Shown here: piece by piece, positions 24,584 through 56,106 of the stretch
How positions within the stretch are numbered: position 1 is the first letter of the stretch
How the letters are laid out: the number at the start of each line of letters is the position of its first letter
From: Candidatus Iainarchaeum sp.
Lineage (GTDB): Archaea > Iainarchaeota > Iainarchaeia > Iainarchaeales > JAGVWC01
Assembly (NCBI GenBank): GCA_018304465.1
Contig: JAGVWC010000011.1
Location: 64,001-128,000, forward strand
DNA: 64,000 bases
Direction of reading: 5' to 3'
Position numbers and translations under genes: made by a program
The notes under the pieces: generated by a model
The model's database searches: none
The model's input: only the letters and a program-made list of their open reading frames with translations
What the model was told of the DNA's origin: nothing

Positions 24584-24641
24584 GCCAAAAGTTATATTTT
24601 TCTTGTTCGTTTTTATTTCAGCGGATAAAGATATCTTCCCA
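24584..24641 (-). repeat. scpA 3'-end repeat copy (WEDIFIR*NKNEQEK)
   Basis: gccaaaagttatatttttcttgttcgtttttatttcagcggataaagatatcttccca aligns to the scpA end at about 33576-33633. Confidence 0.85.
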
Positions 24642-24674
24642 CAACGTTGCGTTTATTACAAAAAAAGAATTTTT

Positions 24675-25079
24675 TCAATCTGATGAAACAATTTCAAAGG
24701 CCAATAAATACTCGTCGTTTATTTTAAGCGCATATTTTCCATTGGCACCCGCTAAACCAACCGTACGGGTATAATATTCAGTCCATCCATCAAAACGCGA
24801 ATCCAACTTCTGCCATCCAAGCTGGTTTAGATCTTGGCTCAAGAGAGTATTTGGGTATTCAACAAACTCGAATTGATTCAGAGTGATTTGGGTTTTTGTC
24901 AGAACATGCAATTCATCGAACGATTCAAAACTTGAACACCGGAAATTAAAATCGGGTGGAAGACTAGCTACATTGCATTGTAATACCGGCTTATTTGCCC
25001 AAAATGGCTTCTCTCCCACACACCCCATCAACAGGAGCCCCCCTACCAGGAGGATACAAACCAAAGAAAGATGTTTCAT
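24675..25079 (-). CDS. Hypothetical lipoprotein (cassette gene)
   Basis: LLLMGC lipobox; flanked by scpA-end repeats. Confidence 0.7.
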   Translation of the reverse strand: MKHLSLVCILLVGGLLLMGCVGEKPFWANKPVLQCNVASLPPDFNFRCSSFESFDELHVLTKTQITLNQFEFVEYPNTLLSQDLNQLGWQKLDSRFDGWTEYYTRTVGLAGANGKYALKINDEYLLAFEIVSSD

Positions 25080-25130
25080 GTTTCAAATACAATTAGAAAG
25101 AATAAAAATGTTCCTACAACGCATTTGTTT

Positions 25131-25146
25131 TGGCAAGAACAATTTC
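25131..25146 (+). repeat. Inverted copy of the scpA WQEQF half-site
   Basis: tggcaagaacaatttc is the exact reverse complement of 32930-32945. Confidence 0.6.
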
Positions 25147-25192
25147 CTTTTTCACGAATTCCACAAAATAAGTTTAATTGCTGTTCTCTTGC

Positions 25193-25226
25193 GTTTTGTT
25201 CGAGCGGATGAAAATATCTTCCCAAA
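25193..25226 (-). repeat. scpA 3'-end repeat copy (WEDIFIRSNK)
   Basis: gttttgttcgagcggatgaaaatatcttcccaaa. Confidence 0.75.
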
Positions 25227-25268
25227 TTAACGAGTCTATTTTTAAAAGAAATTTTGTTTGGATCGGTT

Positions 25269-26420
25269 TCAATTCGGAAGCGACAAATCCCATTCTATTT
25301 TTTGATTCCCCGTAAAATCATCCGTATCGGGATGCGCGGCCCAAGAGTCATTCAATGATCCGTTCAATCTCCCGGATTCGGTCCAGGTTCCCTCGATGAA
25401 CGCCAGAGTTATTCCCAGTGGTTCGTCGTACGATTGGGCGGTTTCTTCGCAGCCTTCTTCGTTGGTCTGGGTCACGGTAACGTGCACCATGACCGCTTTG
25501 TCCACGATGGGTCCCGAATAAGTTCCGTCCGCATAGACGCCGACATATCCATCCTCATATCGATCCAATACTTCGCTTCCACTGCCTGTTCGAACCGTCG
25601 TAGCGCAGTCGTCCCGGGTCGTTTCCTGAAACTCCCAGGTCAATAATCCGTCAGACCAATAATACGTCAAGGCCTCCGGATTCCGATACCCGAAAACAGC
25701 ATGTTCTTTCAAAGTCCCGCCCAGTATGGATACTCGAAGGAAATGGTTATACGAATAATTTCTCGTCGCCCATTCACGGGTGACCCAACTACACTGCAAC
25801 GGCGCCGAAGCCGCCCGGTTCATGATCTGGGTATTCAACGCGTCCAAATCCGCGGTACTTGTCAATTCGGCTAATTCGATCAAACGCCCCTTGCACAGGG
25901 TCGAATTCGTTAACACGCCTTCGATATACGCTTTGATCTTATTCTTCACCGCATCCATCAATTCCGGGTCCTTGATGCCAAGCGATTCGGCCCACGAAAA
26001 CGCATCCAACCATGCGCGCGGAGTGGATGCGGGATCCGATAACACGAACCGAACCCATTCCTTGATTCGGGCCACTACTTCAGCCGGCAATTCATCCTCC
26101 GAGACACCCGCTTCAATCAGGATCCGCATGGCCGCGGACTGCTGTGCGATCGTCGAAGAACTGCTTTTCATCACGTCTTTGGCGTCTTCGATCTTGGGAT
26201 CGTTGTCCGCGTCCGGATCCGGTCCCGGATTGTTTCCCAACGGACCCGAATCGTCATTCGAATCCGATGCGGGATTATTCGAACCGCTTGGCGGAAAAGT
26301 CGCCGCATTTGGACCCGTCGAAGACGGAACCTGGGCACAACCGACAAGCCACACGAGCAAAAGCACGGCCAACGGCCACACGATCAATCGAAGACGCCTA
26401 TTCACGGGAAAACCAATCAC
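25269..26420 (-). CDS. Hypothetical lipoprotein (cassette gene)
   Basis: LLLVWLVGC lipobox, then a P/S/N/D-rich linker. Confidence 0.7.
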   Translation of the reverse strand: MIGFPVNRRLRLIVWPLAVLLLVWLVGCAQVPSSTGPNAATFPPSGSNNPASDSNDDSGPLGNNPGPDPDADNDPKIEDAKDVMKSSSSTIAQQSAAMRILIEAGVSEDELPAEVVARIKEWVRFVLSDPASTPRAWLDAFSWAESLGIKDPELMDAVKNKIKAYIEGVLTNSTLCKGRLIELAELTSTADLDALNTQIMNRAASAPLQCSWVTREWATRNYSYNHFLRVSILGGTLKEHAVFGYRNPEALTYYWSDGLLTWEFQETTRDDCATTVRTGSGSEVLDRYEDGYVGVYADGTYSGPIVDKAVMVHVTVTQTNEEGCEETAQSYDEPLGITLAFIEGTWTESGRLNGSLNDSWAAHPDTDDFTGNQKIEWDLSLPN

Positions 26421-26472
26421 GCTATCAGAATGAATTTTCCTACTATTTATGGATTGCGTTATGAATCGCTCA

Positions 26473-26518
26473 TTACGCTTCCGTGTCCCATTTCACGAAG
26501 AAGTCTTCCCGCGACCGC
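26473..26518 (-). repeat. Divergent scpA 3'-end copy (REDFFVKWDTEA*)
   Basis: gaagaagtcttcccgcgaccgc matches gaagatgtcttcccacgaccgc at 54127; the translation is conservatively similar to WEDIFIRWN. Confidence 0.55.
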
Positions 26519-26625
26519 ACAAATCCAAACGAGCCGAGGCCATTTTGCAGGGAAAAGATATACAGTTGTGAAGGCAAAAAAAAGCATATTTTTATGGGAA
26601 CAAAACCGCCGTAAAACCACGTTTT

Positions 26626-28917
26626 TCAGGGATTCCGTTTCAGGAGAACCCCTGATTTGGCTTCCATTGCAATCGAGGAAACCGGCGCGCCCGAAAGCGT
26701 ATAAAACGTGCCTGCAAGCGAAACCGTTTCGGTCACGGTTCCCGAATTCACGAGCACGAGCACGTTTTGGTATTCGCGCTCATACACGCCGACGGTTCCG
26801 GAACGCAGGTGATATTCTTCACGCGGCTGCCCCACGTTGGTGTCCCACGCGTCAAAATGCACGTAGGTCTGGTAGGGCCCCGGATCCAAACCGAAATGAA
26901 AAAACGCGAACCGCTGGTTTCCAAGCAAGAAAGTCGCGAACGAATAGGACGCCACTTTTTTCATCTGAATGGTATCCGGATCAGAGGGATTGAGCCTATT
27001 CGCGTCCGGCAACCGGAGCCGCCCTTGTGCAAGATAAATCCGCGTCTTCGAAATCGAATTCAGTTCATCCAACTGCTTTTTCCAAGTGGCGCCTGAAAGC
27101 CACGAACCAATGGGAGCCGTCCACGGAGACGCGACGAATTGCTCGTCCATTCCCCCATCAGTTAAACTCGGAAACGAATCGTCTTCGGTCCAACTGTAAA
27201 TGATTCCGTTAAAAACAGTGAGCTTGGGCTTGATTGCGGCCCGAACGAACGAAATCGTATCACTCATGCGCTGGGGCCACGCGTCAATGAAAGCCTGATC
27301 CGGTTCGGACAATGCCCGATAACTCACATACACCGTGCTGTAGGGCTCAACCGGAGTTCCGAGCACGATCTGGTTTTTGGAATAGCTTCCGCCTGCAAAA
27401 AAATCGGTTCCGGTTTGGTCCGGATTATCGAACGCCGTGATGTCGTTTTCACACGCGTAATACGGTTGTGGCGTGTGCAAATTCTCATCCGGCAGATCAA
27501 TGGTTTTTCCGTCGGATCCGACCGTCTGGGACTCGCTTGAAACCCAGCGGATAAATCGGTTGGCGGTCACAATCCGTCCCAGCGCGTTGTCCAGGAATAT
27601 TCCGTCCAAATTTTGGTTTTTGGAAAGAAGCGCTTTCGAATAATCGGCCAACGCTTCCCGCCAAGCGGTTTCCGGATTGATGAGATACCCCGTGAAATAA
27701 CAACGGTGCCGCAGACGGTTTTCGCGAGTAACCGGATGGTTCCGGGCATGGGCAAAGGCGTTCTCGTTGTCTTTGATCGCGTCCCAGACCTCTTTCACCC
27801 AGGTTTCATTCTCGTAAACCGTGTAGGTCTGGGCATACTCGACCACGGGAAGACGGTTACTGGATTGAGACAACAACTCCGATCCAAATACCAGGCCCCG
27901 AATCGAAAAATCCAGTTTGTCAAGCAAAAAATCATGAATTTGCATCGGATCCGTGACTTCCGAGACCGTTCCGTCAAGATGAAACCGCTGTACTTTCGTC
28001 ACATTGTAGGCCGGAAACTGGATTTTGACTATATCGGACTGGCTTGCGATCAGACAATCCCACGGGCAATTGTCTGTTCCCTCGCCTTTGCCGCACACCT
28101 GGTCCCCGCAGACACCCGCGCAATCCGAAGGACACGTCAACGCGGTTTCGCCGGCTTCGCACGCGTCGTTTCCGCACGAGTTGCATTGCGAAACATCGAA
28201 CCCAGAACAATCCGGCTTGCAGGAAAGCGATCCGCCTGCGAAGCCCTGCAATCCACAAGTCTGGGAATTCAAGTCGGAAGAATCACAGGATTCGAATCCC
28301 TCAATGATTCCGTTTCCGCAGGAGTAGACCGGCGGGGTTTCCAAAATGCATTGTTTGACATCAAAGCTTCGGCAATCGGACGCACACAACAAGGTTCCGC
28401 CTTTAAATCCAAACGACCGGCAGGTAGTGCCGTTTAACTTCTCCTTGTCGCAGACCTCCGGCGTTTCAATCACCGAATCGCCGCACACGGGCCGTGAACC
28501 GCAATCATTCGAATTGCAGACGGGTAAAGCCGGACAATCGACTTTACACGAATTCGAATTCTCGCCGATTTCTGATTCACACACGCCATTGGCATTGCAC
28601 ACCCAACAATCCAATAAACAATTATTCACGTTCTCGCCGGTTTCACACACCGAATTCCCGCAAAGGTACTCCGGATTCGACACCGGAAGAACCGGGTCCG
28701 GCAAATTTCCGAAAAAATTGGCATCACTGTTTGAGTCGCCTACCGGCAAAGCAGGCGGTCTTTGAACCGACAGCCCCACCCAAGTGATTCCGATAACAAG
28801 AACAACAAACAAGACCAAGGAAACCGTGTTAAGCATTTGATTGATCGGCGCCTTGCCAGACGGTGTGGACACGAACACAAGATCTTTCGATGCGTCGGAT
28901 TCCATGTAGATTAACAA
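26626..28917 (-). CDS. Membrane-anchored protein with Cys-rich (DUF4215-like) repeats and a putative glycoside hydrolase domain
   Basis: N-terminal TM; CGNSVCE.GE...C..DC repeats; DGIFLDN; VYEREY...VLVN. Confidence 0.7.
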   Translation of the reverse strand: MLIYMESDASKDLVFVSTPSGKAPINQMLNTVSLVLFVVLVIGITWVGLSVQRPPALPVGDSNSDANFFGNLPDPVLPVSNPEYLCGNSVCETGENVNNCLLDCWVCNANGVCESEIGENSNSCKVDCPALPVCNSNDCGSRPVCGDSVIETPEVCDKEKLNGTTCRSFGFKGGTLLCASDCRSFDVKQCILETPPVYSCGNGIIEGFESCDSSDLNSQTCGLQGFAGGSLSCKPDCSGFDVSQCNSCGNDACEAGETALTCPSDCAGVCGDQVCGKGEGTDNCPWDCLIASQSDIVKIQFPAYNVTKVQRFHLDGTVSEVTDPMQIHDFLLDKLDFSIRGLVFGSELLSQSSNRLPVVEYAQTYTVYENETWVKEVWDAIKDNENAFAHARNHPVTRENRLRHRCYFTGYLINPETAWREALADYSKALLSKNQNLDGIFLDNALGRIVTANRFIRWVSSESQTVGSDGKTIDLPDENLHTPQPYYACENDITAFDNPDQTGTDFFAGGSYSKNQIVLGTPVEPYSTVYVSYRALSEPDQAFIDAWPQRMSDTISFVRAAIKPKLTVFNGIIYSWTEDDSFPSLTDGGMDEQFVASPWTAPIGSWLSGATWKKQLDELNSISKTRIYLAQGRLRLPDANRLNPSDPDTIQMKKVASYSFATFLLGNQRFAFFHFGLDPGPYQTYVHFDAWDTNVGQPREEYHLRSGTVGVYEREYQNVLVLVNSGTVTETVSLAGTFYTLSGAPVSSIAMEAKSGVLLKRNP

Positions 28918-29075
28918 AGAGGATTCGCCAATAAAAAGCTAACTGAAAAAAAGATTTTTTTTCTATTTGGAAACGCGAAATCCGTTTTTTTTCAAATCCA
29001 AAATCACGGAATTTAGCTTCTCGATTATTTTCCCACAGCCCGATGGCAATTCAAAACAAAAAAAATAAAAAGATT

Positions 29076-29092
29076 AGAGGCGATTCGCCTCT
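29076..29092 (-). terminator. Intrinsic terminator-like hairpin
   Basis: agaggcg-att-cgcctct, 10 nt after the 29102 stop, with T-rich runs on both strands. Confidence 0.55.
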
Positions 29093-29101
29093 TTTTTGAC
29101 C

Positions 29102-30451
29102 TTACGGAATCGAAATAATGCCGTCGACTCCGATCTCGAGAATGACTTGGGGTCCAATGCGCATATCGACACCCATCTCGCCGTCTTCATTCATTCCAAC
29201 AGCGTGTTTGGTCGTGGTGATTCCACCCACTAAGATCACTTTTTGGCCTTGGGTCACCGAAACATCCACTTCGGATTTGGTTTCAACCAAGATAACGGGG
29301 GCCAAAATATACTTTCCATTGCCCGTTACATGCAGCGAATCATCCGCATTAAAATCCAATACCGCAGTGGCCGTCTCGTTTTGGTCCACTTCAAGATTGG
29401 CGTCAATTCGCAGTACATTTGACGGAAGCTTCGCGGTTTTGGCCTGGTTATCGACCGTCAAGTTGACATCGGACACGGATAACCGAATCTGATCATATGT
29501 TCCGGCCATCACATTGACATCCGCCATCAATGCGATTGAACTGTCGGCACTCAATGCGATCAGGTCGAATGTTTGCACCGAAGAAGAAATGGTATTCCAC
29601 AGGCCTGCATTCGAATCGCGGACTTCCACGCGTGTAACCGTCAGCAAAATACTGGTTACATTGTTCAAGTCTTTTTTGGCATCCGTGATTCCAATGACCA
29701 CGCGTCCGTTTCCCCGGCCTTGCGGACCAAGACCAATTCTAATTTTGCCTTGGGCATCAATGTCAAGGGCCGTGTCGCGGGGAATGCCGATTCCAACACC
29801 CATGTTTCCCTGGATGTCCATTCCGAATTTGGCGTTTGATTTAACAGTTCCGCCTCGAACTGAAATGGAATTGTTCGAACCTGCTTCAACTGTTGCATTG
29901 CTTCGGGTTTCCATTTGAATTACCGGCGCCAGAATATATTTGCCGTTTCCCGTGACATGCAATGATTCGTCAGCCAATACATCCAAAACAACAGTCGAAG
30001 TCGAGTTGCTATTGACATCTAATTGCCCCACTAGTTTTAGTTCGTTGGATGGCAATTTGGCTTCGGTGGTTCCGGTTTCATCCGTGACCATCACTTTAGA
30101 AATCTGCAACCGCAACTGCTGATACGTTCCAGGCTGCAAATTGACATCCGTCAATGCAACCACCATGGATTGCGACTTTAAGGCCAACAAATCCACTGTT
30201 TTGGATGTGGATGATACGGTTACCCAGCCTTTGGATGCACTATGCACTTGAATCTGATCAATCGTCACATCGATTTTTGATACGGACTCCATGTTTGCGG
30301 CCGCATCCGTGATTCCGATGACTATCCGACCGGTTGAGGCACCACCATTTGGATTCGACGGGGCACTTGTACAACCAACGAGTAATAGCAGAAGTACTAA
30401 GGCCACCATTCCGATTGGAACTGAAAAACGCTTCAAACTCATTCTATCCAC
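29102..30451 (-). CDS. Lipoprotein with two tandem DUF4382-like domains
   Basis: LVGC lipobox; duplicated GR.VIGITDA...GTY.Q.RL...KLPSN...SLHVTGNGKYILAPVI. Confidence 0.8.
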   Translation of the reverse strand: MDRMSLKRFSVPIGMVALVLLLLLVGCTSAPSNPNGGASTGRIVIGITDAAANMESVSKIDVTIDQIQVHSASKGWVTVSSTSKTVDLLALKSQSMVVALTDVNLQPGTYQQLRLQISKVMVTDETGTTEAKLPSNELKLVGQLDVNSNSTSTVVLDVLADESLHVTGNGKYILAPVIQMETRSNATVEAGSNNSISVRGGTVKSNAKFGMDIQGNMGVGIGIPRDTALDIDAQGKIRIGLGPQGRGNGRVVIGITDAKKDLNNVTSILLTVTRVEVRDSNAGLWNTISSSVQTFDLIALSADSSIALMADVNVMAGTYDQIRLSVSDVNLTVDNQAKTAKLPSNVLRIDANLEVDQNETATAVLDFNADDSLHVTGNGKYILAPVILVETKSEVDVSVTQGQKVILVGGITTTKHAVGMNEDGEMGVDMRIGPQVILEIGVDGIISIP

Positions 30452-30529
30452 CCAATAAACATGAGTAATATTTCAATATAAATCAGTTGCTTTTATAGCG
30501 ATCGGCCATTGTGACGAGTAACAAACCCG

Positions 30530-30604
30530 GCCAAAAGTCTTATTTTTCCTGTTCGTTTTTATTCCAGTGGATGAAAATATCTTCCCAGAATTGTTCATGC
30601 CAAA
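30530..30604 (-). repeat. scpA 3'-end repeat, long copy (WHEQFWEDIFIHWNKNEQEK*)
   Basis: About 75 bp aligning to 33576-33650, several differences synonymous. Confidence 0.92.
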
Positions 30605-30635
30605 AATGTGTAAATGTGATTGACCACGAAATGAC

Positions 30636-39739: not shown

Positions 39740-41674
39740 CTATTTTCCCGCTTTGAACCGTTTTTCCATCTGATGAATCCGGTCCCGAAGCACGATCGCT
39801 TTTTCAAACTGCAGTTCTTCCGCGGCCACGTTCATTTCCGCTTCGAGTTCGATCAGCAACGCGGGAATATTGTCCTTTGGAATCGTTTCCACGCTTGACA
39901 AATCCATATCGCCTTCCTTGATGGCCTTGATGATCGTTTTCGGAACGATCCCGTGTTTTTCGTTGAACTCCAGTTGCTTGGCGCGGCGACGATTCGTCTC
40001 GTCAATCGCCCGTTTCATCGAATCCGTCATCCGGGAAGAATACAAAATCACGCGTCCCTCGGAATTCCGCGCCGCACGTCCAATCGTCTGGATCAACGAC
40101 CGGTCGTTTCGCAAAAAACCTTCCTGATCCGCGTCCAAAATCGCGACCAAAGCGACTTCCGGAATATCCAATCCTTCGCGCAGCAAATTGATTCCGACCA
40201 ACGTGTCGAATTTTTTCAATCGCAACTGGCGAATCACTTCGGTTCGCTCCAACGTATCGATTTCCGAATGCAAATATCTCACTTTCAATTGTTTTTTGGC
40301 GAAAAACTCGGTCAAATCCTCCGCCATTTTCTTGGTCAAGGTCGTTACCAGCGTTCGAAAACCCTTTGCGGTGGTTGATTCGATTTCTTTGAACAAATCA
40401 TTCACCTGATCGTTTGACGGACGCACTTCAATGATCGGATCCACAAGCCCTGTGGGACGAATGATCTGTTCCACGACTTTTTTCGAATGCTTAAACTCGT
40501 AATCCGCCGGCGTCGCGCTCGTAAACACCACGTTTTTGAGGTATTTTTCGAATTCCTCGAACGAAAGCGGACGGTTATCGAACGCGCTGGGCAACCGAAA
40601 CCCATGGTCCACCAGGCTTTTTTTGCGCGACTGATCCCCTTTCAACATTCCGTGAATCTGCGGCAACGACACGTGCGATTCGTCGATAATCATCAAAAAA
40701 TCTTTCGGAAAAAAATCCAAGAGACAATACGGCGGCTCGCCGGGTTTTCGGCCGTCAAAATGACGCGAATAATTCTCGATTCCGCTGCAATACCCGAGTT
40801 CCTCGATCATTTCCAAATCATAAAACGTGCGCGAACGCAAGCGTTCTTGTTCCAACGGACCCAAGTTCGGCAGCCATTCCTTTAACTCTGTTCGAATCGA
40901 TTCGATCGCCCGGTTCCGCTGGTCTTCTTCGATCACGAAGTGCCGCGCGGGAAACAACACGATCGCATTCATTTTTTCGACCAATTGGTTCGTTAACGCG
41001 TTTCGAACCGAAATCGCCTCTACCGTGTCCCCGAAAAACTCGATGCGCGTAAACGAGTCATCGGTTCCGCTTCGAATATCCACAATATCGCCCAGCACCC
41101 GGATTTTTCCCGGCGAAAAATCGACATTGTTGCGCTGATACTGAATATCCACCAGCTTTTCAATCAAAGTATTGCGGTTAATTTCCTCGCCGACCCGCAC
41201 CGAAACCGCCATTTTGGCATAGTTTTCCGGGTCCCCCAACCCATAAATACACGAGACACTTGAAACAATGATCACGTCTTTTCGCGTCATCAACGCATGC
41301 GTGGCCTCCAGGCGCAATTGCTCGATTTTTTCATTGATTTGCGCGTCTTTTTCAATATACACGTCTTTTCCCGGCAAATACGATTCCGGCTGGTAATAAT
41401 CGTAATACGAAACAAAATAATGCACCGAATTATTCGGAAAAAACGCCTTGAACTCGTTAAACAACTGGGCCGCCAAGGTCTTGTTGTGACACAACACCAA
41501 CGTGGGTTTTTGGACTTTTTCAATCACGTTTGAAACCGTAAACGTCTTTCCGCTGCCCGTGACCCCAAGCAACGTGAGCAACCCGCCGGTCTTGAGGCCT
41601 TCGGCTAATTCTTTAATCGCTTGGGGCTGGTCTCCAGCAGGCTGGAACGAACTTTCCACTTTGAATAGAGGCAT
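39740..41674 (-). CDS. uvrB: Excinuclease ABC subunit B
   Basis: GVTGSGKT, YYDYYQPE, DESH, GRAARN. Confidence 0.98.
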   Translation of the reverse strand: MPLFKVESSFQPAGDQPQAIKELAEGLKTGGLLTLLGVTGSGKTFTVSNVIEKVQKPTLVLCHNKTLAAQLFNEFKAFFPNNSVHYFVSYYDYYQPESYLPGKDVYIEKDAQINEKIEQLRLEATHALMTRKDVIIVSSVSCIYGLGDPENYAKMAVSVRVGEEINRNTLIEKLVDIQYQRNNVDFSPGKIRVLGDIVDIRSGTDDSFTRIEFFGDTVEAISVRNALTNQLVEKMNAIVLFPARHFVIEEDQRNRAIESIRTELKEWLPNLGPLEQERLRSRTFYDLEMIEELGYCSGIENYSRHFDGRKPGEPPYCLLDFFPKDFLMIIDESHVSLPQIHGMLKGDQSRKKSLVDHGFRLPSAFDNRPLSFEEFEKYLKNVVFTSATPADYEFKHSKKVVEQIIRPTGLVDPIIEVRPSNDQVNDLFKEIESTTAKGFRTLVTTLTKKMAEDLTEFFAKKQLKVRYLHSEIDTLERTEVIRQLRLKKFDTLVGINLLREGLDIPEVALVAILDADQEGFLRNDRSLIQTIGRAARNSEGRVILYSSRMTDSMKRAIDETNRRRAKQLEFNEKHGIVPKTIIKAIKEGDMDLSSVETIPKDNIPALLIELEAEMNVAAEELQFEKAIVLRDRIHQMEKRFKAGK

Positions 41675-49813: not shown

Positions 49814-50500
49814 TTATTTTTTCCCCTTTTTCGAACCCGGAACCATCTGGTTTTTGACGGCGTCCAGTTTGGCGGTAATGTCGGACAAAATCTTCGGGAT
49901 TTCCCCGCCCGCATTCACTTCGAATACCATTCCGCGTTTCTTGTAAAAATCAATAATGGGACGCGTTTGTTCTTCGAACAATTGCCAGCGTTTTCGAATC
50001 GCTTCTTCCTTGTCGTCTTCGCGCTGGTACAGTTCTCCGCCGTCCAAATCGCATTTGCCCGGAACTTTGGAAGGCAAATTCGTCACGTGATAAATCTTTC
50101 CGCATACCTTGCATTGAATGCGACCCGTAATGCGCTGCAACAAAATCTTGTCATCAGCCCCAAACAACAAAACCAAATCAAGTTTTTTTTTCGTTTGATC
50201 CATCAAAGAATCCAGCATCTGGGCTTGCTTGACGGTTCGAGGATACCCGTCCAGAATAAAACCGTTTTTGCAGTCCTCCGCGCCAAGACGCAATTCCAAC
50301 AATTGCGAAACCAGTTCATCCGAAACCAATCCGCCTTCTTTCATGGTTTTGGCGACACGTTGACCCAGCGGGGACGGCTTTTTGGCTTCTTCGCGCAGCA
50401 AATCGCCCGTTGAAATCTGCGGCAAGGAATACTTCGCGCTGATGCGCTGGGCATAGGTTCCTTTTCCAACGCCTTGCTTTCCCAAAAACACCAAATTCAT
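49814..50500 (-). CDS. adk: Adenylate kinase (bacterial type with LID domain)
   Basis: GKGT, STGDLLR, LDGYPRT, QREDD. Confidence 0.95.
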   Translation of the reverse strand: MNLVFLGKQGVGKGTYAQRISAKYSLPQISTGDLLREEAKKPSPLGQRVAKTMKEGGLVSDELVSQLLELRLGAEDCKNGFILDGYPRTVKQAQMLDSLMDQTKKKLDLVLLFGADDKILLQRITGRIQCKVCGKIYHVTNLPSKVPGKCDLDGGELYQREDDKEEAIRKRWQLFEEQTRPIIDFYKKRGMVFEVNAGGEIPKILSDITAKLDAVKNQMVPGSKKGKK

Positions 50501-52358: not shown

Positions 52359-52392
52359 AAAGGTTTAATAACTTCCAATGGAAATAGTCGCT

Positions 52393-53154
52393 ATGCTGTA
52401 CGTGATCGGAATCGGACTTTCGCCGCAACAAATGACGCTTGAAGCAGTGGCAGCTGTCAAAAAAAGCCGGAAAATATACCTTGAAAACTATACCAGCGCG
52501 TTTGCCAGTGGAACCCGCAAACAATTGGAAAAAATCCTGCACAAAAAAATAACGGTTTTGACGCGAAAACAAGTCGAAGAAGAATTCACGCCGGTTCTAT
52601 CGCTTGCGCGCAAAAAAACCGTCGCATTACTGGTCTACGGAAACCCCTTGTTTGCCACCACCCACATCCAGTTGATCCTCGACGCGCAAGCCAAGCGAAC
52701 CCCTATTACCGTCATTCCGGGAATTTCCATTGTGAATTATGTCGGCGCCACCGGACTTGACGCCTACAAATTCGGCCGCACTGCAACCGTCGTGTTCCAA
52801 GAACCCAATTATTCGCCTCACTCGTTTTTTGACATCATCGAAAAAAACAGCCAAGCGGGACTACACTCGCTGTGCCTGCTTGATATTCGCACGGATGAAA
52901 ACCGTTTCATGACCGTTACCGAGGCCATCGCGATACTGCGAAAAATAGCGGATTTTCGAAACTCCGATTTGATCCAAAACACAGTGCTAATTGGGTTGTA
53001 TGGTGTCGGCGGCAAAAACCAGCGGATCCGAATCGAAAACCCTTCGATCACCCGAAAACCCATCGAAGCGTATCCCCAATCCCTGATCGTTTGCGGCAAA
53101 CTCAATCCCAAAGAACAAGAAGCCATTGAATTGTTTCGGGGGAAAAAACGATGA
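52393..53154 (+). CDS. dph5: Diphthine synthase
   Basis: MLYVIGIGL, YLENYTS, ATTH, YKFGRT, GLHSLCLLD. Confidence 0.93.
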   Translation: MLYVIGIGLSPQQMTLEAVAAVKKSRKIYLENYTSAFASGTRKQLEKILHKKITVLTRKQVEEEFTPVLSLARKKTVALLVYGNPLFATTHIQLILDAQAKRTPITVIPGISIVNYVGATGLDAYKFGRTATVVFQEPNYSPHSFFDIIEKNSQAGLHSLCLLDIRTDENRFMTVTEAIAILRKIADFRNSDLIQNTVLIGLYGVGGKNQRIRIENPSITRKPIEAYPQSLIVCGKLNPKEQEAIELFRGKKR

Positions 53155-53438
53155 ACGAAACACTTCGGCACAAAACCAAAAAATACCGGCTATTAACCGA
53201 AGAAGCATTGCGAGTCATCCAAGTCTCAAAACCGCTTTCAACCAAAGAAAAAAAAATCGCGGCCGACTTTTTGCAAATGACGCGAAATTATTTTTCCGAC
53301 GGACAACACTTCGAACATCAAAAAGAATTCGCTACGGCACTTGCGGCCTATTCGTATGCACACGCATGGCTGGACGCAGGAGTACGCGCCGGATTATTCG
53401 ACGCAAAAGGAAACGACCGGTTGTTCACGCTACAATAA
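53151..53438 (+). CDS. DUF357 protein
   Basis: YFSDG.HF, YAHAWLDAG.R.GLF. Confidence 0.88.
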   Translation: MNETLRHKTKKYRLLTEEALRVIQVSKPLSTKEKKIAADFLQMTRNYFSDGQHFEHQKEFATALAAYSYAHAWLDAGVRAGLFDAKGNDRLFTLQ

Positions 53439-53451
53439 AAAAAGATTGGGG

Positions 53452-53486
53452 GGATGAAAATATCTTCCCAAAACAAGAACACGCTG
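53452..53486 (-). repeat. scpA 3'-end repeat, short copy with the shared arm
   Basis: ggatgaaaatatcttcccaaaacaagaacacgctg; 24 bp identical to 32320-32343. Confidence 0.85.
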
Positions 53487-53523
53487 TTTGATTTTCAGGC
53501 GGAAAAAATGCTGGAATTGGCTG

Positions 53524-53781
53524 TCAAAACTGGGTATACACTTTTTTCCGGTGTTCGATCCGCAGGACAATTATTTTTTTTGTTGCTGGAAATTTTTGGA
53601 CAATTACCCGATAATGCCCCACACGAACCTTTTGGTATGGCGTTCCTTTTACGGCCTCGAGAAAAACGGAATCTTCTTTTTCAAATAATTCCATCTTGTC
53701 GAGAATTCGACGAGTAAGTTCTTTTTCAAGGGACTCAAGATCTTTCTTTGCGCGGTTCGTCCAAACAAGTGTGAAAGGCAT
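53524..53781 (-). CDS. relE: RelE-family toxin
   Basis: RAKKDL..L, KVRVGHYRVI, HRKKVY. Confidence 0.88.
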   Translation of the reverse strand: MPFTLVWTNRAKKDLESLEKELTRRILDKMELFEKEDSVFLEAVKGTPYQKVRVGHYRVIVQKFPATKKIIVLRIEHRKKVYTQF

Positions 53782-54030
53782 TCATAAACCCAGTTCTTTG
53801 CGTAATTGCTTGGAAGAAAACACGCGTCCGTGCCGCAGGTCTTTTTTAGCCTCTTCAATCCCCCTCAAGGTTTCCGAACTCAATTCGAACTCGGCCTCTT
53901 CATCTTCACGTATGCGACTTAATAATTTCTCAATCACATCCGCGTAGGTTTCACGCTCGTTTTCCTTGAATGCATCCAAATCCTTCTTTACTTTAACCGG
54001 GATCTGAATAGTCGAATTATCAGCCATCAT
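53782..54030 (-). CDS. Antitoxin (ribbon-helix-helix-like)
   Basis: TIQI...K..ETYADVIEKL, LSSETLRGIEEA..D...GR; abuts the toxin. Confidence 0.8.
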   Translation of the reverse strand: MMADNSTIQIPVKVKKDLDAFKENERETYADVIEKLLSRIREDEEAEFELSSETLRGIEEAKKDLRHGRVFSSKQLRKELGL

Positions 54031-54110
54031 AACACCTTATAGTATATTACAAACAACTATAATAAAAGACGTTTCTTTCGATGATTGTGGAAATATCTTT
54101 TTGCCGCAGG

Positions 54111-54171
54111 TTTTGTTCCAGCGGATGAAGATGTCTTCCCACGACCGCTCCACGCTGCACGGTTTATCGAC
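54111..54171 (-). repeat. scpA 3'-end repeat copy (WEDIFIRWNK) with the shared arm
   Basis: ttttgttccagcggatgaagatgtcttccca...cacgctgcacgg aligns to 32297-32358. Confidence 0.88.
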
Positions 54172-54256
54172 GGTTTTCTAAAGAAGACTGGCCGAGAACT
54201 TCGCCCGTTTTGAATTCGCCGGAACCTTTTTTAATTATAGGAACTCCGTATATACA

Positions 54257-55438
54257 ATGCCCGCACGAAATCGTCGCATACAACGAGTCCAAGCGGAAAC
54301 CAATCGTGTGATGGACTCTGCCTTTGGAAATCCGCAGCACCGAGGAATAACACGTAGGCAACGCCTGGGAGAACTGCGCAACCAAGCCGCCCGTTATGCA
54401 AAACATGCGCCCGTCCAATTTGCAGCCCGACAAATCGTTAAACACCTCAGCCGCGCGCAAACTACGTTTGAAGGCCATTCAAAGATCACTCCTATCCAAA
54501 GCGCTTCTGTTTTTTACGGGGGTCAAAACATCCGGTTCGGAAAAGCGATTCGGGAACACTTTCGAAAACGCAGGATCACCGCTCGATCCATGCAGCTAGA
54601 TTCAAAACGATCTCCCACCAGCACAGTTGAGAATCGGCGCATCGACGCATTATCACGAGCAAACGCGGTTGTATTTGCAGCGAATGGTCCCGCCAGCAAG
54701 CTTGATGGCCCCGTAGACCGGATTGTGAATAGTGTGGAGCGGCGATACGGAAAAAAAAGCGGTACTCGTCTTGCGCTGATGTACGGCATTACACCGCAAG
54801 CAGTCCGAGAAGTGCTATCCCTAAACTCCAAACGCATGCATGAATTCACACGGCGGACTTTTCAAGCGGTACACGGATGCAAAACCATCCAAGTCCGGTC
54901 TTCCAGCGGGACCAACATGACTTTTTCGATTACTCCCCGACATCGCTGGGTTCAAGATAACGCTATTCTCTCTAAAAACTATTGGGGAAACCTGCCCGCA
55001 GGAGAAGTATTCACCGCGCCCGCTTCCGCCAACGGAAACCTTGTGATCGATGCCGTGATGAACAACGTTGGCGACTGTCATAAAACGCCCATCACTGTGC
55101 AAATCCGAAACGGTCGCGCGATCCCTCAAACCGCACGGTGCAAGAACCCGCGACTGCTCAGAAAGTTTCTTGCCCAAATCCATGCGGAACCCAACGCGGA
55201 CCGCATCGGCGAACTTGGTTTAGGGACCAATGTGGCGGTGACCAAACTCACCGGTAACGATTTGGTGGATGAAAAGCATGTGGGCGTGCACGTGGCGTTT
55301 GGAGACCCCGAAGGCGCAGACACGGGGGCCACATGGACGACGGCAGAAGGCACTCATAACGATGCGATTCTGCGAAAACCCAGCATATTTGTGGATGGGC
55401 GCTGCATCATGCGAAACGGAAAAAGTCTACTGATGTAA
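54257..55438 (+). CDS. M29 (AmpS/T-like) aminopeptidase homologue with a basic N-terminal extension
   Basis: NLPAGEVF, GELGLGTN, DEK..GVHVAFG, H.D. Confidence 0.8.
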   Translation: MPARNRRIQRVQAETNRVMDSAFGNPQHRGITRRQRLGELRNQAARYAKHAPVQFAARQIVKHLSRAQTTFEGHSKITPIQSASVFYGGQNIRFGKAIREHFRKRRITARSMQLDSKRSPTSTVENRRIDALSRANAVVFAANGPASKLDGPVDRIVNSVERRYGKKSGTRLALMYGITPQAVREVLSLNSKRMHEFTRRTFQAVHGCKTIQVRSSSGTNMTFSITPRHRWVQDNAILSKNYWGNLPAGEVFTAPASANGNLVIDAVMNNVGDCHKTPITVQIRNGRAIPQTARCKNPRLLRKFLAQIHAEPNADRIGELGLGTNVAVTKLTGNDLVDEKHVGVHVAFGDPEGADTGATWTTAEGTHNDAILRKPSIFVDGRCIMRNGKSLLM

Positions 55439-55453
55439 AACTCATGGCTGTCA

Positions 55454-55527
55454 CAGCCAATCAGCTTATTTTTCCTACTCGTTTTTATTCCAGCGAATAA
55501 AGATATCTTCCCAGAATTGTTCTTGCC
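55454..55527 (-). repeat. scpA 3'-end repeat, long near-identical copy
   Basis: 55482-55527 is identical over 46 bp to scpA 33602-33647. Confidence 0.95.
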
Positions 55528-55596
55528 TCGATGCGTTCACTTTTCCCAGTAAAAAGGTTTAAATATTTCGAATCTGTATCTAATAAAGGCCTGGAC

Positions 55597-56106
55597 ATGG
55601 GAATATACGATTCGCTTCCGCAACTCGATCTGGACATGGATTCCGCCAAAAAATACGCGGCGATTGTCGCAGCCATTGTGGTGGTCGGATGCCTGGCATT
55701 TGTGCTGTTCACCCAAAACAACACCGCGTTTAGTATTTTTTCGTTTCTCAATGGAAACCCGATCGACGCCAAATTCGACGGACCCATCAACCTTAGCATC
55801 GGATCCGACGGCTTGCCGGTAAAAACCAGTACGAATCTTGTGGTAACATTAACCAACCCGTCCAATCAACCCGCACGCGACGTATCGATTCTGGTGCGCG
55901 CGTCCGATGACCAAGCCCTGATCATTTATCCGTCTTCACGCGTCATCCCCGTGCTTGACAAAACGCGTAACGCCCAATTCACGATCCGACCCAACCCCGT
56001 GCAACCCGCTTTGTCCGGAACCTATCTTATTGAAATACAGGCGTTTGTCGGCGACAAAGAATACTCCAAACAAATCGAATTACAGGTCAAAACCAACGAA
56101 CCGTGA
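55597..56106 (+). CDS. Membrane-anchored Ig-like hypothetical protein
   Basis: One TM segment, then a beta-rich domain (TLTNP, GTYLIEI). Confidence 0.6.
   Translation: MGIYDSLPQLDLDMDSAKKYAAIVAAIVVVGCLAFVLFTQNNTAFSIFSFLNGNPIDAKFDGPINLSIGSDGLPVKTSTNLVVTLTNPSNQPARDVSILVRASDDQALIIYPSSRVIPVLDKTRNAQFTIRPNPVQPALSGTYLIEIQAFVGDKEYSKQIELQVKTNEP

Follow-up and report, generated by a model that had tools for sequence, protein, structure and literature searches.

Relic 3' ends of scpA delimit two cassette arrays in a Candidatus Iainarchaeum contig, one of them possibly displaced

Introduction

Integrative elements that accumulate at the end of a target gene are known from the tycheposon islands of Prochlorococcus, which target tRNA genes and for which the published account describes tandem accretion, partial target copies, stacked elements and degraded integrase-less remnants (10.1101/2020.12.28.424599). 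Here we describe a 64,000-nucleotide (nt) stretch of a Candidatus Iainarchaeum sp. assembly (GCA_018304465.1, contig JAGVWC010000011.1, positions 64,001 to 128,000; hereafter the window, in whose own coordinates all features are given), in which two arrays of small gene cassettes, array 1 beside the kleisin gene scpA and array 2 at 53452-55528, are delimited by repeats that correspond to the 3' end of scpA. As in tycheposon-type islands, the units are bounded by direct partial copies of the 3' end of the target gene, newcomers would push older units outward, and the incoming site would restore the gene end. Unlike in those islands, the target is a kleisin gene in an archaeon of the DPANN type (Diapherotrites, Parvarchaeota, Aenigmarchaeota, Nanoarchaeota and Nanohaloarchaeota), the units are mostly single genes of 0.5-1.4 kb, the ~11 kb of array contain no integrase fragment, and 21.9 kb separate one array segment from the target gene.

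In integrons, the attC sites are imperfect inverted repeats that fold as a hairpin of single-stranded DNA (ssDNA), and the IntI tyrosine recombinase beside the array is needed for a complete integron and is absent by definition from a cluster of attC sites lacking integron-integrases (CALIN). The arrays described here broadly resemble CALINs in their compact, mostly single-gene cassettes, including toxin-antitoxin (TA) genes, their ~60-75-bp repeats in one orientation and the lack of a nearby integrase; most archaeal integrons reported in one survey are CALINs (10.1101/2022.02.06.479319). Unlike in CALINs, the repeats are relic coding ends of the neighbouring gene without a hairpin, no IntI is present, and a gene end, not attI, is the docking site. 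Insertion of an integron cassette at a secondary site carries it, together with its site, out of the platform and leaves one crossover point. Array 2 likewise lies outside its platform, but the site sequences at its two ends overlap by 33 nt, and target-gene DNA is included in them. Xer-dependent modules, such as integrative mobile elements exploiting Xer (IMEX) and the pdif modules of Acinetobacter, are small, often carry TA genes, use short sites and depend for their movement on a recombinase that the host encodes at another locus; their dif site has an 11-6-11 layout of 28 bp. The units here are also small, include a TA pair and carry short recombination-type sites, but by eye, and in a comparison that included no archaeal dif, they show no 11-6-11 layout, only a 10-12-bp palindrome in the codons for EDIF, in one orientation. 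Integrative cassette arrays at gene 3' ends are already known as a kind; what is unusual here is the orphan segment, the origin of which is partly resolved.

Results

We built a repeat profile from seven full copies and searched the 64-kb window with nhmmer, counting copies at E <= 0.012. The results showed nine copies, all in the same orientation as scpA, as the original prediction had stated; independent repeat finding recovered the same family, and a tenth, degenerate copy was located near 26.5 kb. The reference copy (33576-33650, minus strand) consists of the last ~20 codons of scpA and 11 nt downstream, and scpA itself (33586-34392, minus strand; Pfam PF02616, E 4e-16) is the live target gene. 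Array 1 (24584-33575, minus strand) lies downstream of scpA, and its mostly single-gene units are split by relic copies at 24584-24653, 25170-25238, 30530-30602 and 32274-32343 (minus strand; repeat and profile searches) and by degenerate relics at ~26470-26520 and 31006-31040 (minus strand; repeat, profile and motif searches).

Array 2 carries three same-strand copies, at 53452-53486, 54087-54157 and 55457-55528 (all minus strand). The left copy is truncated to a core and one form of right head, here called type B (model positions 40-74, E 2e-5); it matched 25206-25226 exactly over 21 nt and was 91% identical to 32311-32343 over 33 nt. The middle, 54.1-kb copy is a full repeat with a short tail, core and type-B head (E 9e-17), and was 81% identical to 32297-32358 over 62 nt. 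The right, 55.5-kb copy is also full, and its positions 55482-55527 equal scpA 33602-33647 exactly. No scpA body adjoins array 2, the right neighbour of which is a membrane-protein gene, while the intact scpA abuts array 1. These results bear out the earlier proposal of a second, scpA-free and integrase-less array on the same repeat. Its gene order, with repeats, TA genes and a peptidase gene between a DUF357 gene and a membrane-protein gene, also held; the first copy had been taken for a whole repeat, and this part did not stand, as homology starts only at 53452.

The live scpA end reads WQEQFWEDIFIRWNKNQQEK on the minus strand, followed by a stop codon. Read on the same strand, the relics outside array 2 end as WEDIFIHWNKNEQEK, WEDIFIRWNKNQEKS, WEDIFIRSNKTQENSN and REDFFVKWDTEA, each followed by a stop codon, and as WEDIFIR, stop, NKNEQEKY. 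In array 2, the 54.1-kb copy reads SWEDIFIRWNKT with no nearby stop, the left copy reads SVFLFWEDIFI and then diverges, and the 55.5-kb copy reads QEQFWEDIFIRWNKNE, stop, EK, stop, in agreement with the in-frame TAG noted previously. The motif [WR]E[DE][IFLV]F[IV] gave nine six-frame matches, all on the minus strand (eight relics and live scpA), compared to 0.04 expected from 50 shuffles. Within the ten-codon WEDIFIRWNK block, six copies differed from scpA at codon positions 1, 2 and 3 in 0, 2 and 15 cases, giving 14 synonymous and three non-synonymous codon changes; all four differences of the 54.1-kb copy were synonymous. Since the differences sit mostly at third codon positions, the repeat copies evolved as translated scpA ends, and their origin from scpA and past coding constraint are plain from these counts.

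Of 120 C-termini inspected among ScpA homologues, most had a WQEEFWxEIF- or WQ[ED]EFWxEIF-type end followed by a variable tail; judged from these termini, the WEDIF-type motif is native to ScpA of this clade. The repeat spans the boundary between the conserved and the variable part of ScpA, and the crossover that we infer would fall there. The farthest relic, at 24.6 kb, has lost both the Trp codon and the stop codon, as expected for the oldest copy.

Several minor features of the repeat family were also recorded. The degenerate relic at 26470-26520 has the minus-strand peptide REDFFVKWDTEA given above and a head resembling that of the 54.1-kb copy; as it splits an apparent 5.3-kb array-1 unit, the 383-aa secreted protein encoded there becomes a single-gene cassette. 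A 16-nt exact scpA fragment coding for WQEQF lies inverted at 25129-25144, 50 nt left of the 25.2-kb copy, and a 13-nt direct fragment lies at 32932-32944, between the array-1 TA pair and a 205-aa gene; both are probably further site remnants. The short core pattern GAWRWMTTCCCA, with one mismatch allowed, gave 11 matches compared to 7.2 expected and was uninformative alone. The idea that 31006-31040 and 53452-53486 are halves of one split site was dropped, as the 31-kb copy carries on, past a short tandem duplication, in the form of a degenerate full copy. A resemblance of the left flank (53400-53475) to the left flanks of the 54.1-kb copy or of other copies was not convincing either, because 64 of 2000 shuffles attained the best score and the remaining flanks scored lower.

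A full copy consists of a left tail (variable ScpA codons, a stop codon and ~12 nt into the start of the next gene), a core of WEDIFI codons and a right head. The EDIF codons of scpA (GAA GAT ATC TTY), part of a conserved protein motif, form a 10-12-bp palindrome at the repeat centre, at 33616-33633 and in every copy, and are a plausible core for a recombinase. Tails and heads assorted independently among copies. The tails of scpA and of the 55.5-, 30.5- and 24.6-kb copies had 17-23 of 26 positions in common, while 16 of 17 head positions were identical between the 32.3-kb copy and the left copy of array 2, and the 54.1-kb copy matched both at 9-10 of 17. All three type-B heads (32.3, 53.45 and 54.1 kb) contain CACGCTG at a fixed distance from the core; this heptamer is not derived from scpA, and the cargo of the three is unrelated. 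In scpA and in the 30.5- and 55.5-kb copies, the core continues as scpA-like sequence instead of a type-B head. For the 30.5-kb copy this head extends over ~55 nt, which shows that cassettes have captured scpA DNA before. The pattern fits serial integration, in which the scpA junction would combine the newest tail with scpA, and older junctions would combine an old tail with a newer head. Two of the type-B sites (32297-32345 and 54111-54160) have CAGCG left of the core and CGCTG ~37 nt to the right, a 5-bp inverted pair that is kept despite differing intervening sequence.

Folding of eight copies as ssDNA gave z scores of -1.18 to +1.53, with 23-190 of 200 shuffles folding at least as well, and no attC-like hairpin signal was present in these eight copies. 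The earlier comparison with CALINs stood as to the missing integrase and failed as to the sites. Because the repeats are relic scpA 3' ends without an attC fold, CALIN is an analogy here and not a membership. There were no Rfam matches and no tRNA genes in the window, and therefore no RNA-gene target for the arrays.

We compared the scpA junction with the 55.5-kb copy. The two were 90.5% identical over 74 nt, and their longest exact run was 46 nt, compared to 8-20 nt for the other copies; a 43-mer from this tract had exactly two matches in the window and none in 100 shuffles. The exact identity of 55482-55527 with scpA over 46 bp, reported in the original prediction, was confirmed, as was the claim that these direct repeats bracket ~22 kb of core genes: the spacing is 21,880 bp, and uvrC, uvrA, uvrB, ahcY, adk and dph5 lie between them (Pfam-confirmed). 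The 55.5-kb copy is a mosaic relative to scpA, with 0 of 46 mismatches in its right part and 7 among the 28 positions of the tail next to it (Fisher P = 0.0007). The 30.5-kb copy, by comparison, was evenly diverged, with nine mismatches spread over 74 nt. The mosaic fits a recent copy from the scpA junction, in line with that part of the earlier claim of a recent event; the aminopeptidase-like cargo described below does not fit a recent import.

The two ends of array 2 do not match each other. The left copy starts abruptly at 53452, just past the position matching the end of the WEDIFI codons, and continues into a type-B head, whereas the right copy has a full tail and core plus 14 nt more of scpA, with its end at 55527 falling within the Trp codon of WQEQF. 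Expressed in scpA register, the left junction contains sequence from 33615 onward and the right junction sequence up to 33647, and the 33-nt overlap common to both ends differs in sequence, being type B on the left and scpA type on the right. Any one crossover needs 25-33 nt of pre-existing scpA-like DNA in the target, and for this reason a single canonical integration into a naive spacer is excluded; judged by their sequences, the array-2 ends are not a matched attL/attR pair from one such event. The earlier suggestion of simple nucleation at a naive secondary site fails on this point. The crossover would lie within 33602-33614 (scpA register), between the last tail difference at 33601 and the truncation point at 33614. 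The DNA right of this crossover in the 55.5-kb copy would then be scpA proper of the same lineage, which points to a two-cassette segment copied or moved from the scpA-proximal end of an array together with 33 bp of scpA. GATG occurs in both outer junctions of array 2, weakly hinting that the joining may have been microhomology-mediated.

On its left, array 2 is flanked by a DUF357 gene (53151-53438, plus strand; Pfam PF04010, E 4e-22, full profile 1-73 of 73), the exact protein of which occurs on 16 contigs. A spacer of 13 nt without repeat similarity (53439-53451) follows the DUF357 stop codon and places the left junction at 53451/53452. The first cassette contains an 85-aa toxin of the ParE/RelE superfamily (53524-53781, minus strand; PF05016, E 7.6e-9, 36.5 bits compared to a cut-off of 23; exact protein on 15 contigs) and an 82-aa putative antitoxin (53782-54030, minus strand; on 14 contigs) that abuts the toxin start and has sub-threshold matches to VAPB_antitox (22.1 compared to 27.9 bits) and DUF7557. 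The toxin and its upstream partner open reading frame (ORF), which ends where the toxin starts (53781/53782), have the layout of a type II TA system of the ParE/RelE kind. This cassette was also considered as a copy of the array-1 TA pair and rejected, with the toxins 27% identical over 33 residues only and the partner proteins unalignable.

The second cassette encodes a 393-aa M29-family (aminopeptidase T-like) protein (54257-55438, plus strand; PF02073, E 3e-13, 49.8 bits compared to a cut-off of 27), which was matched over profile positions 203-348 of 406 only, runs opposite to the repeats and had no sequence match in the PDB. Within array 2, ORF ends and repeats are separated by 37, 56, 99 and 18 nt, and the array had no blastn match in phage and plasmid collections. 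On its right lies the membrane-protein gene (55597-56106, plus strand, possible start 55531; 169 aa from 55597), of no known family and without a Pfam or NCBIfam match, which had homologues of 64% identity on the contig of one relative (relative A) and 49% on that of another (relative B). Dph5 and DUF357 (52378-53438) overlap and are fused (PF00590 + PF04010) in other archaeal metagenome-assembled genomes, so that the pair is a conserved unit.

The window has a G+C content of 47%, and its genes include dph5, DUF357, DUF63, Trm5/Tyw2, NucS and uvrABC (Pfam/NCBIfam); the best named relatives of ScpA and Dph5 are labelled Micrarchaeota or Diapherotrites. The units are mostly ~0.5-1.4 kb long, with one gene or one TA pair each, and six of eight transcription units are co-oriented with the repeats (hand count from ORF tables), those in the opposite orientation being the M29 gene in array 2 and the array-1 TA pair. 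The start of the gene behind each tail in array 1 lies a few nt past the relic stop codon, so that read-through from scpA would extend into a newly inserted gene. The array-1 cargo at 24675-30451 is mainly predicted secreted proteins and lipoproteins co-oriented with scpA, among them ORFs of 134 aa (lipoprotein-like), 383 aa, 763 aa with GHL15 and 449 aa with DUF4382; G+C is 0.51-0.54 across 25.3-28.9 kb compared to 0.47 for the window. A 356-aa, very basic protein with several helix-turn-helix (HTH)-like segments and no family (31155-32225, minus strand) is the sole candidate DNA-handling protein in either array; it had no tblastn match in phage and plasmid collections. ESM Atlas gave nothing usable for the 205-aa array-1 protein. 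Outside the arrays, uvrB (39740-41674, minus strand) and adk (49814-50500, minus strand) are overlapped by antisense ORFs of 141, 132 and 313 aa, which a longest-ORF caller picks; these call for caution in automatic annotation of the contig.

A scan of genome contigs with a degenerate back-translation of WEDIF[IV]..W gave 13 single-match loci, all bacterial or unrelated, compared to ~13 expected by chance (hand estimate); the source genome and its relatives were not among the loci. A surface-level literature search found nothing relevant on scpA as an archaeal integration site or on integrated elements of DPANN archaea.

Discussion

We favour, at about even chances, the reading that array 1 arose by serial site-specific cassette insertions at scpA and that array 2 is a displaced scpA-proximal segment of such an array, possibly still a docking site; both the serial integration and the route of array 2 to its present site are what we infer. 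Small circular cassettes (0.5-4 kb, mostly one gene or a TA pair) would insert site-specifically into the last scpA codons by means of an attP-like site, the tail of which would provide a substitute ScpA C-terminus with its stop codon, while the core would mimic the WEDIFI codons and the head would be cassette-specific. Each new insertion would displace the previous tail away from scpA and so produce an array of cassettes split by relic scpA ends, namely array 1, with the recombinase acting in trans and encoded outside the window. Array 2 would then be a two-cassette piece of an scpA-proximal array end, now between DUF357 and the membrane-protein gene. Because its right end carries 33 bp of scpA-proper DNA past the crossover and its left end is cut inside the site, the relocation would have been non-canonical: illegitimate recombination may have joined in either a linear fragment or a circle that had been excised aberrantly and opened at a single point. 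The terminal 55.5-kb copy, with its 46 bp identical to the live scpA site, could still act as a docking half-site.

Several observations weigh against this reading. The relocation step would have to be read from no more than two junctions, and the microhomology, GATG, spans 4 nt. No circular form, empty site or array in a relative was seen. Among the 70 ORFs searched with Pfam and the 16 searched with NCBIfam in the 64-kb window, none had an integrase or recombinase domain. Either the enzyme must be supplied in trans, or homologous recombination accounts for part of the process. The 356-aa protein is a weak multi-HTH lead only (ESM Atlas score 0.84, below the 0.9 reliability line). The M29-like protein has 2209 relatives at E <= 1e-3, and the best of them, 59% identical over the full length, lies on the 149,974-nt contig of the nearest relative, relative A, which also carries ScpA (81%), the membrane protein (64%) and Dph5 (53%). 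Because 59% falls within this core-protein range of 53-81%, the M29 cargo is not a recent foreign import, and judging from these identities the M29 gene, perhaps the whole island, may be old and syntenic; recency is argued by the 46-bp tract only. Finally, homologous recombination on 75 bp of homology could mimic parts of the pattern without a dedicated recombinase.

The original prediction treated array 2 as a true secondary docking site, filled cassette by cassette through the same recombinase, in the manner of integron cassettes at secondary sites or in CALINs. In favour of this are the terminal copy, which matches the live scpA site at 46 of 46 positions, the 54.1-kb copy, with the tail-core-head layout expected of a junction between two successive insertions, and the compact cassettes, among which, as in array 1, there is a TA pair. 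This explanation nevertheless leaves the origin of the seed unexplained, since any single crossover needs a target with 25-33 nt of scpA-like DNA, and there is no attC-like fold; we consider it unlikely, although with some weight. It is rather improbable that a single scpA-linked array was split by chromosomal rearrangement, through translocation or duplication-deletion of the scpA-to-DUF357 block, or through a second scpA deleted to 14 nt past the core. Such an event would need at least two breakpoints inside the ~75-bp repeats, plus gene conversion or a very recent date for the perfect 46-bp tract, and no second scpA or other scar is visible in the window. On the other side, closing the 21.9-kb block as a circle puts array 2 downstream of the scpA 3' end, the M29 homologue of relative A diverges like a core gene, and the discordant similarity of ScpA and Dph5 to that relative hints at past exchange in the block.

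Circles looped out by homologous recombination might also re-enter scpA-like copies by RadA-mediated Campbell-type integration on 50-75 bp of homology, without any dedicated recombinase. The lack of a recombinase gene in 64 kb agrees with this, and the ends of homology vary between copies, as variable crossover points would give. Yet the non-scpA heptamer CACGCTG is kept in the heads with constant spacing from the core, a pattern suggestive of protein binding, and entry into the spacer between DUF357 and the membrane-protein gene is unexplained, because that spacer has no homology; we hold this route to be quite improbable. Least probable by far is an assembly artefact, by mis-threading through the 46-bp repeat or a strain chimera. 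The sequence looks metagenome-derived, and an exact 46-bp repeat could confuse short k-mers, but the junctions at 53451/53452 and 55527/55528 are unique and could not be invented by an assembler, and a thread swap at the 46-mer gives a 21.9-kb circle of housekeeping genes rather than a simpler chromosome. Across several sources, moreover, 9-15 contigs carry the exact array-2 proteins, a frequency like that of the flanking proteins (8-16). Together, the unique outer junctions, the recurrence across contigs and the outcome of the thread swap make an assembly error unlikely.

The displaced-segment reading has a bolder extension, which we regard as doubtful. The locus might be a DPANN integron-like gene-capture platform without IntI or attC, in which a trans-acting recombinase would work at the palindromic EDIF core of scpA, cassettes would replace the kleisin tail and be read through from scpA, and a transplanted half-site of 33-46 bp would suffice to start a new active array.

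Little is known about how reduced-genome DPANN archaea gain and shuffle accessory genes. The relic scpA ends offer a cheap marker for such islands, and they also explain spurious ORFs called across them. If the proposed explanation is true, the end of a conserved housekeeping gene serves as a cassette platform, which would repeatedly rewrite the C-terminal tail of the kleisin ScpA and store secreted proteins and TA modules. Displaced pieces of this platform would then leave 21.9 kb of essential genes enclosed by a 46-bp direct repeat, which is a latent substrate for deletion or excision.

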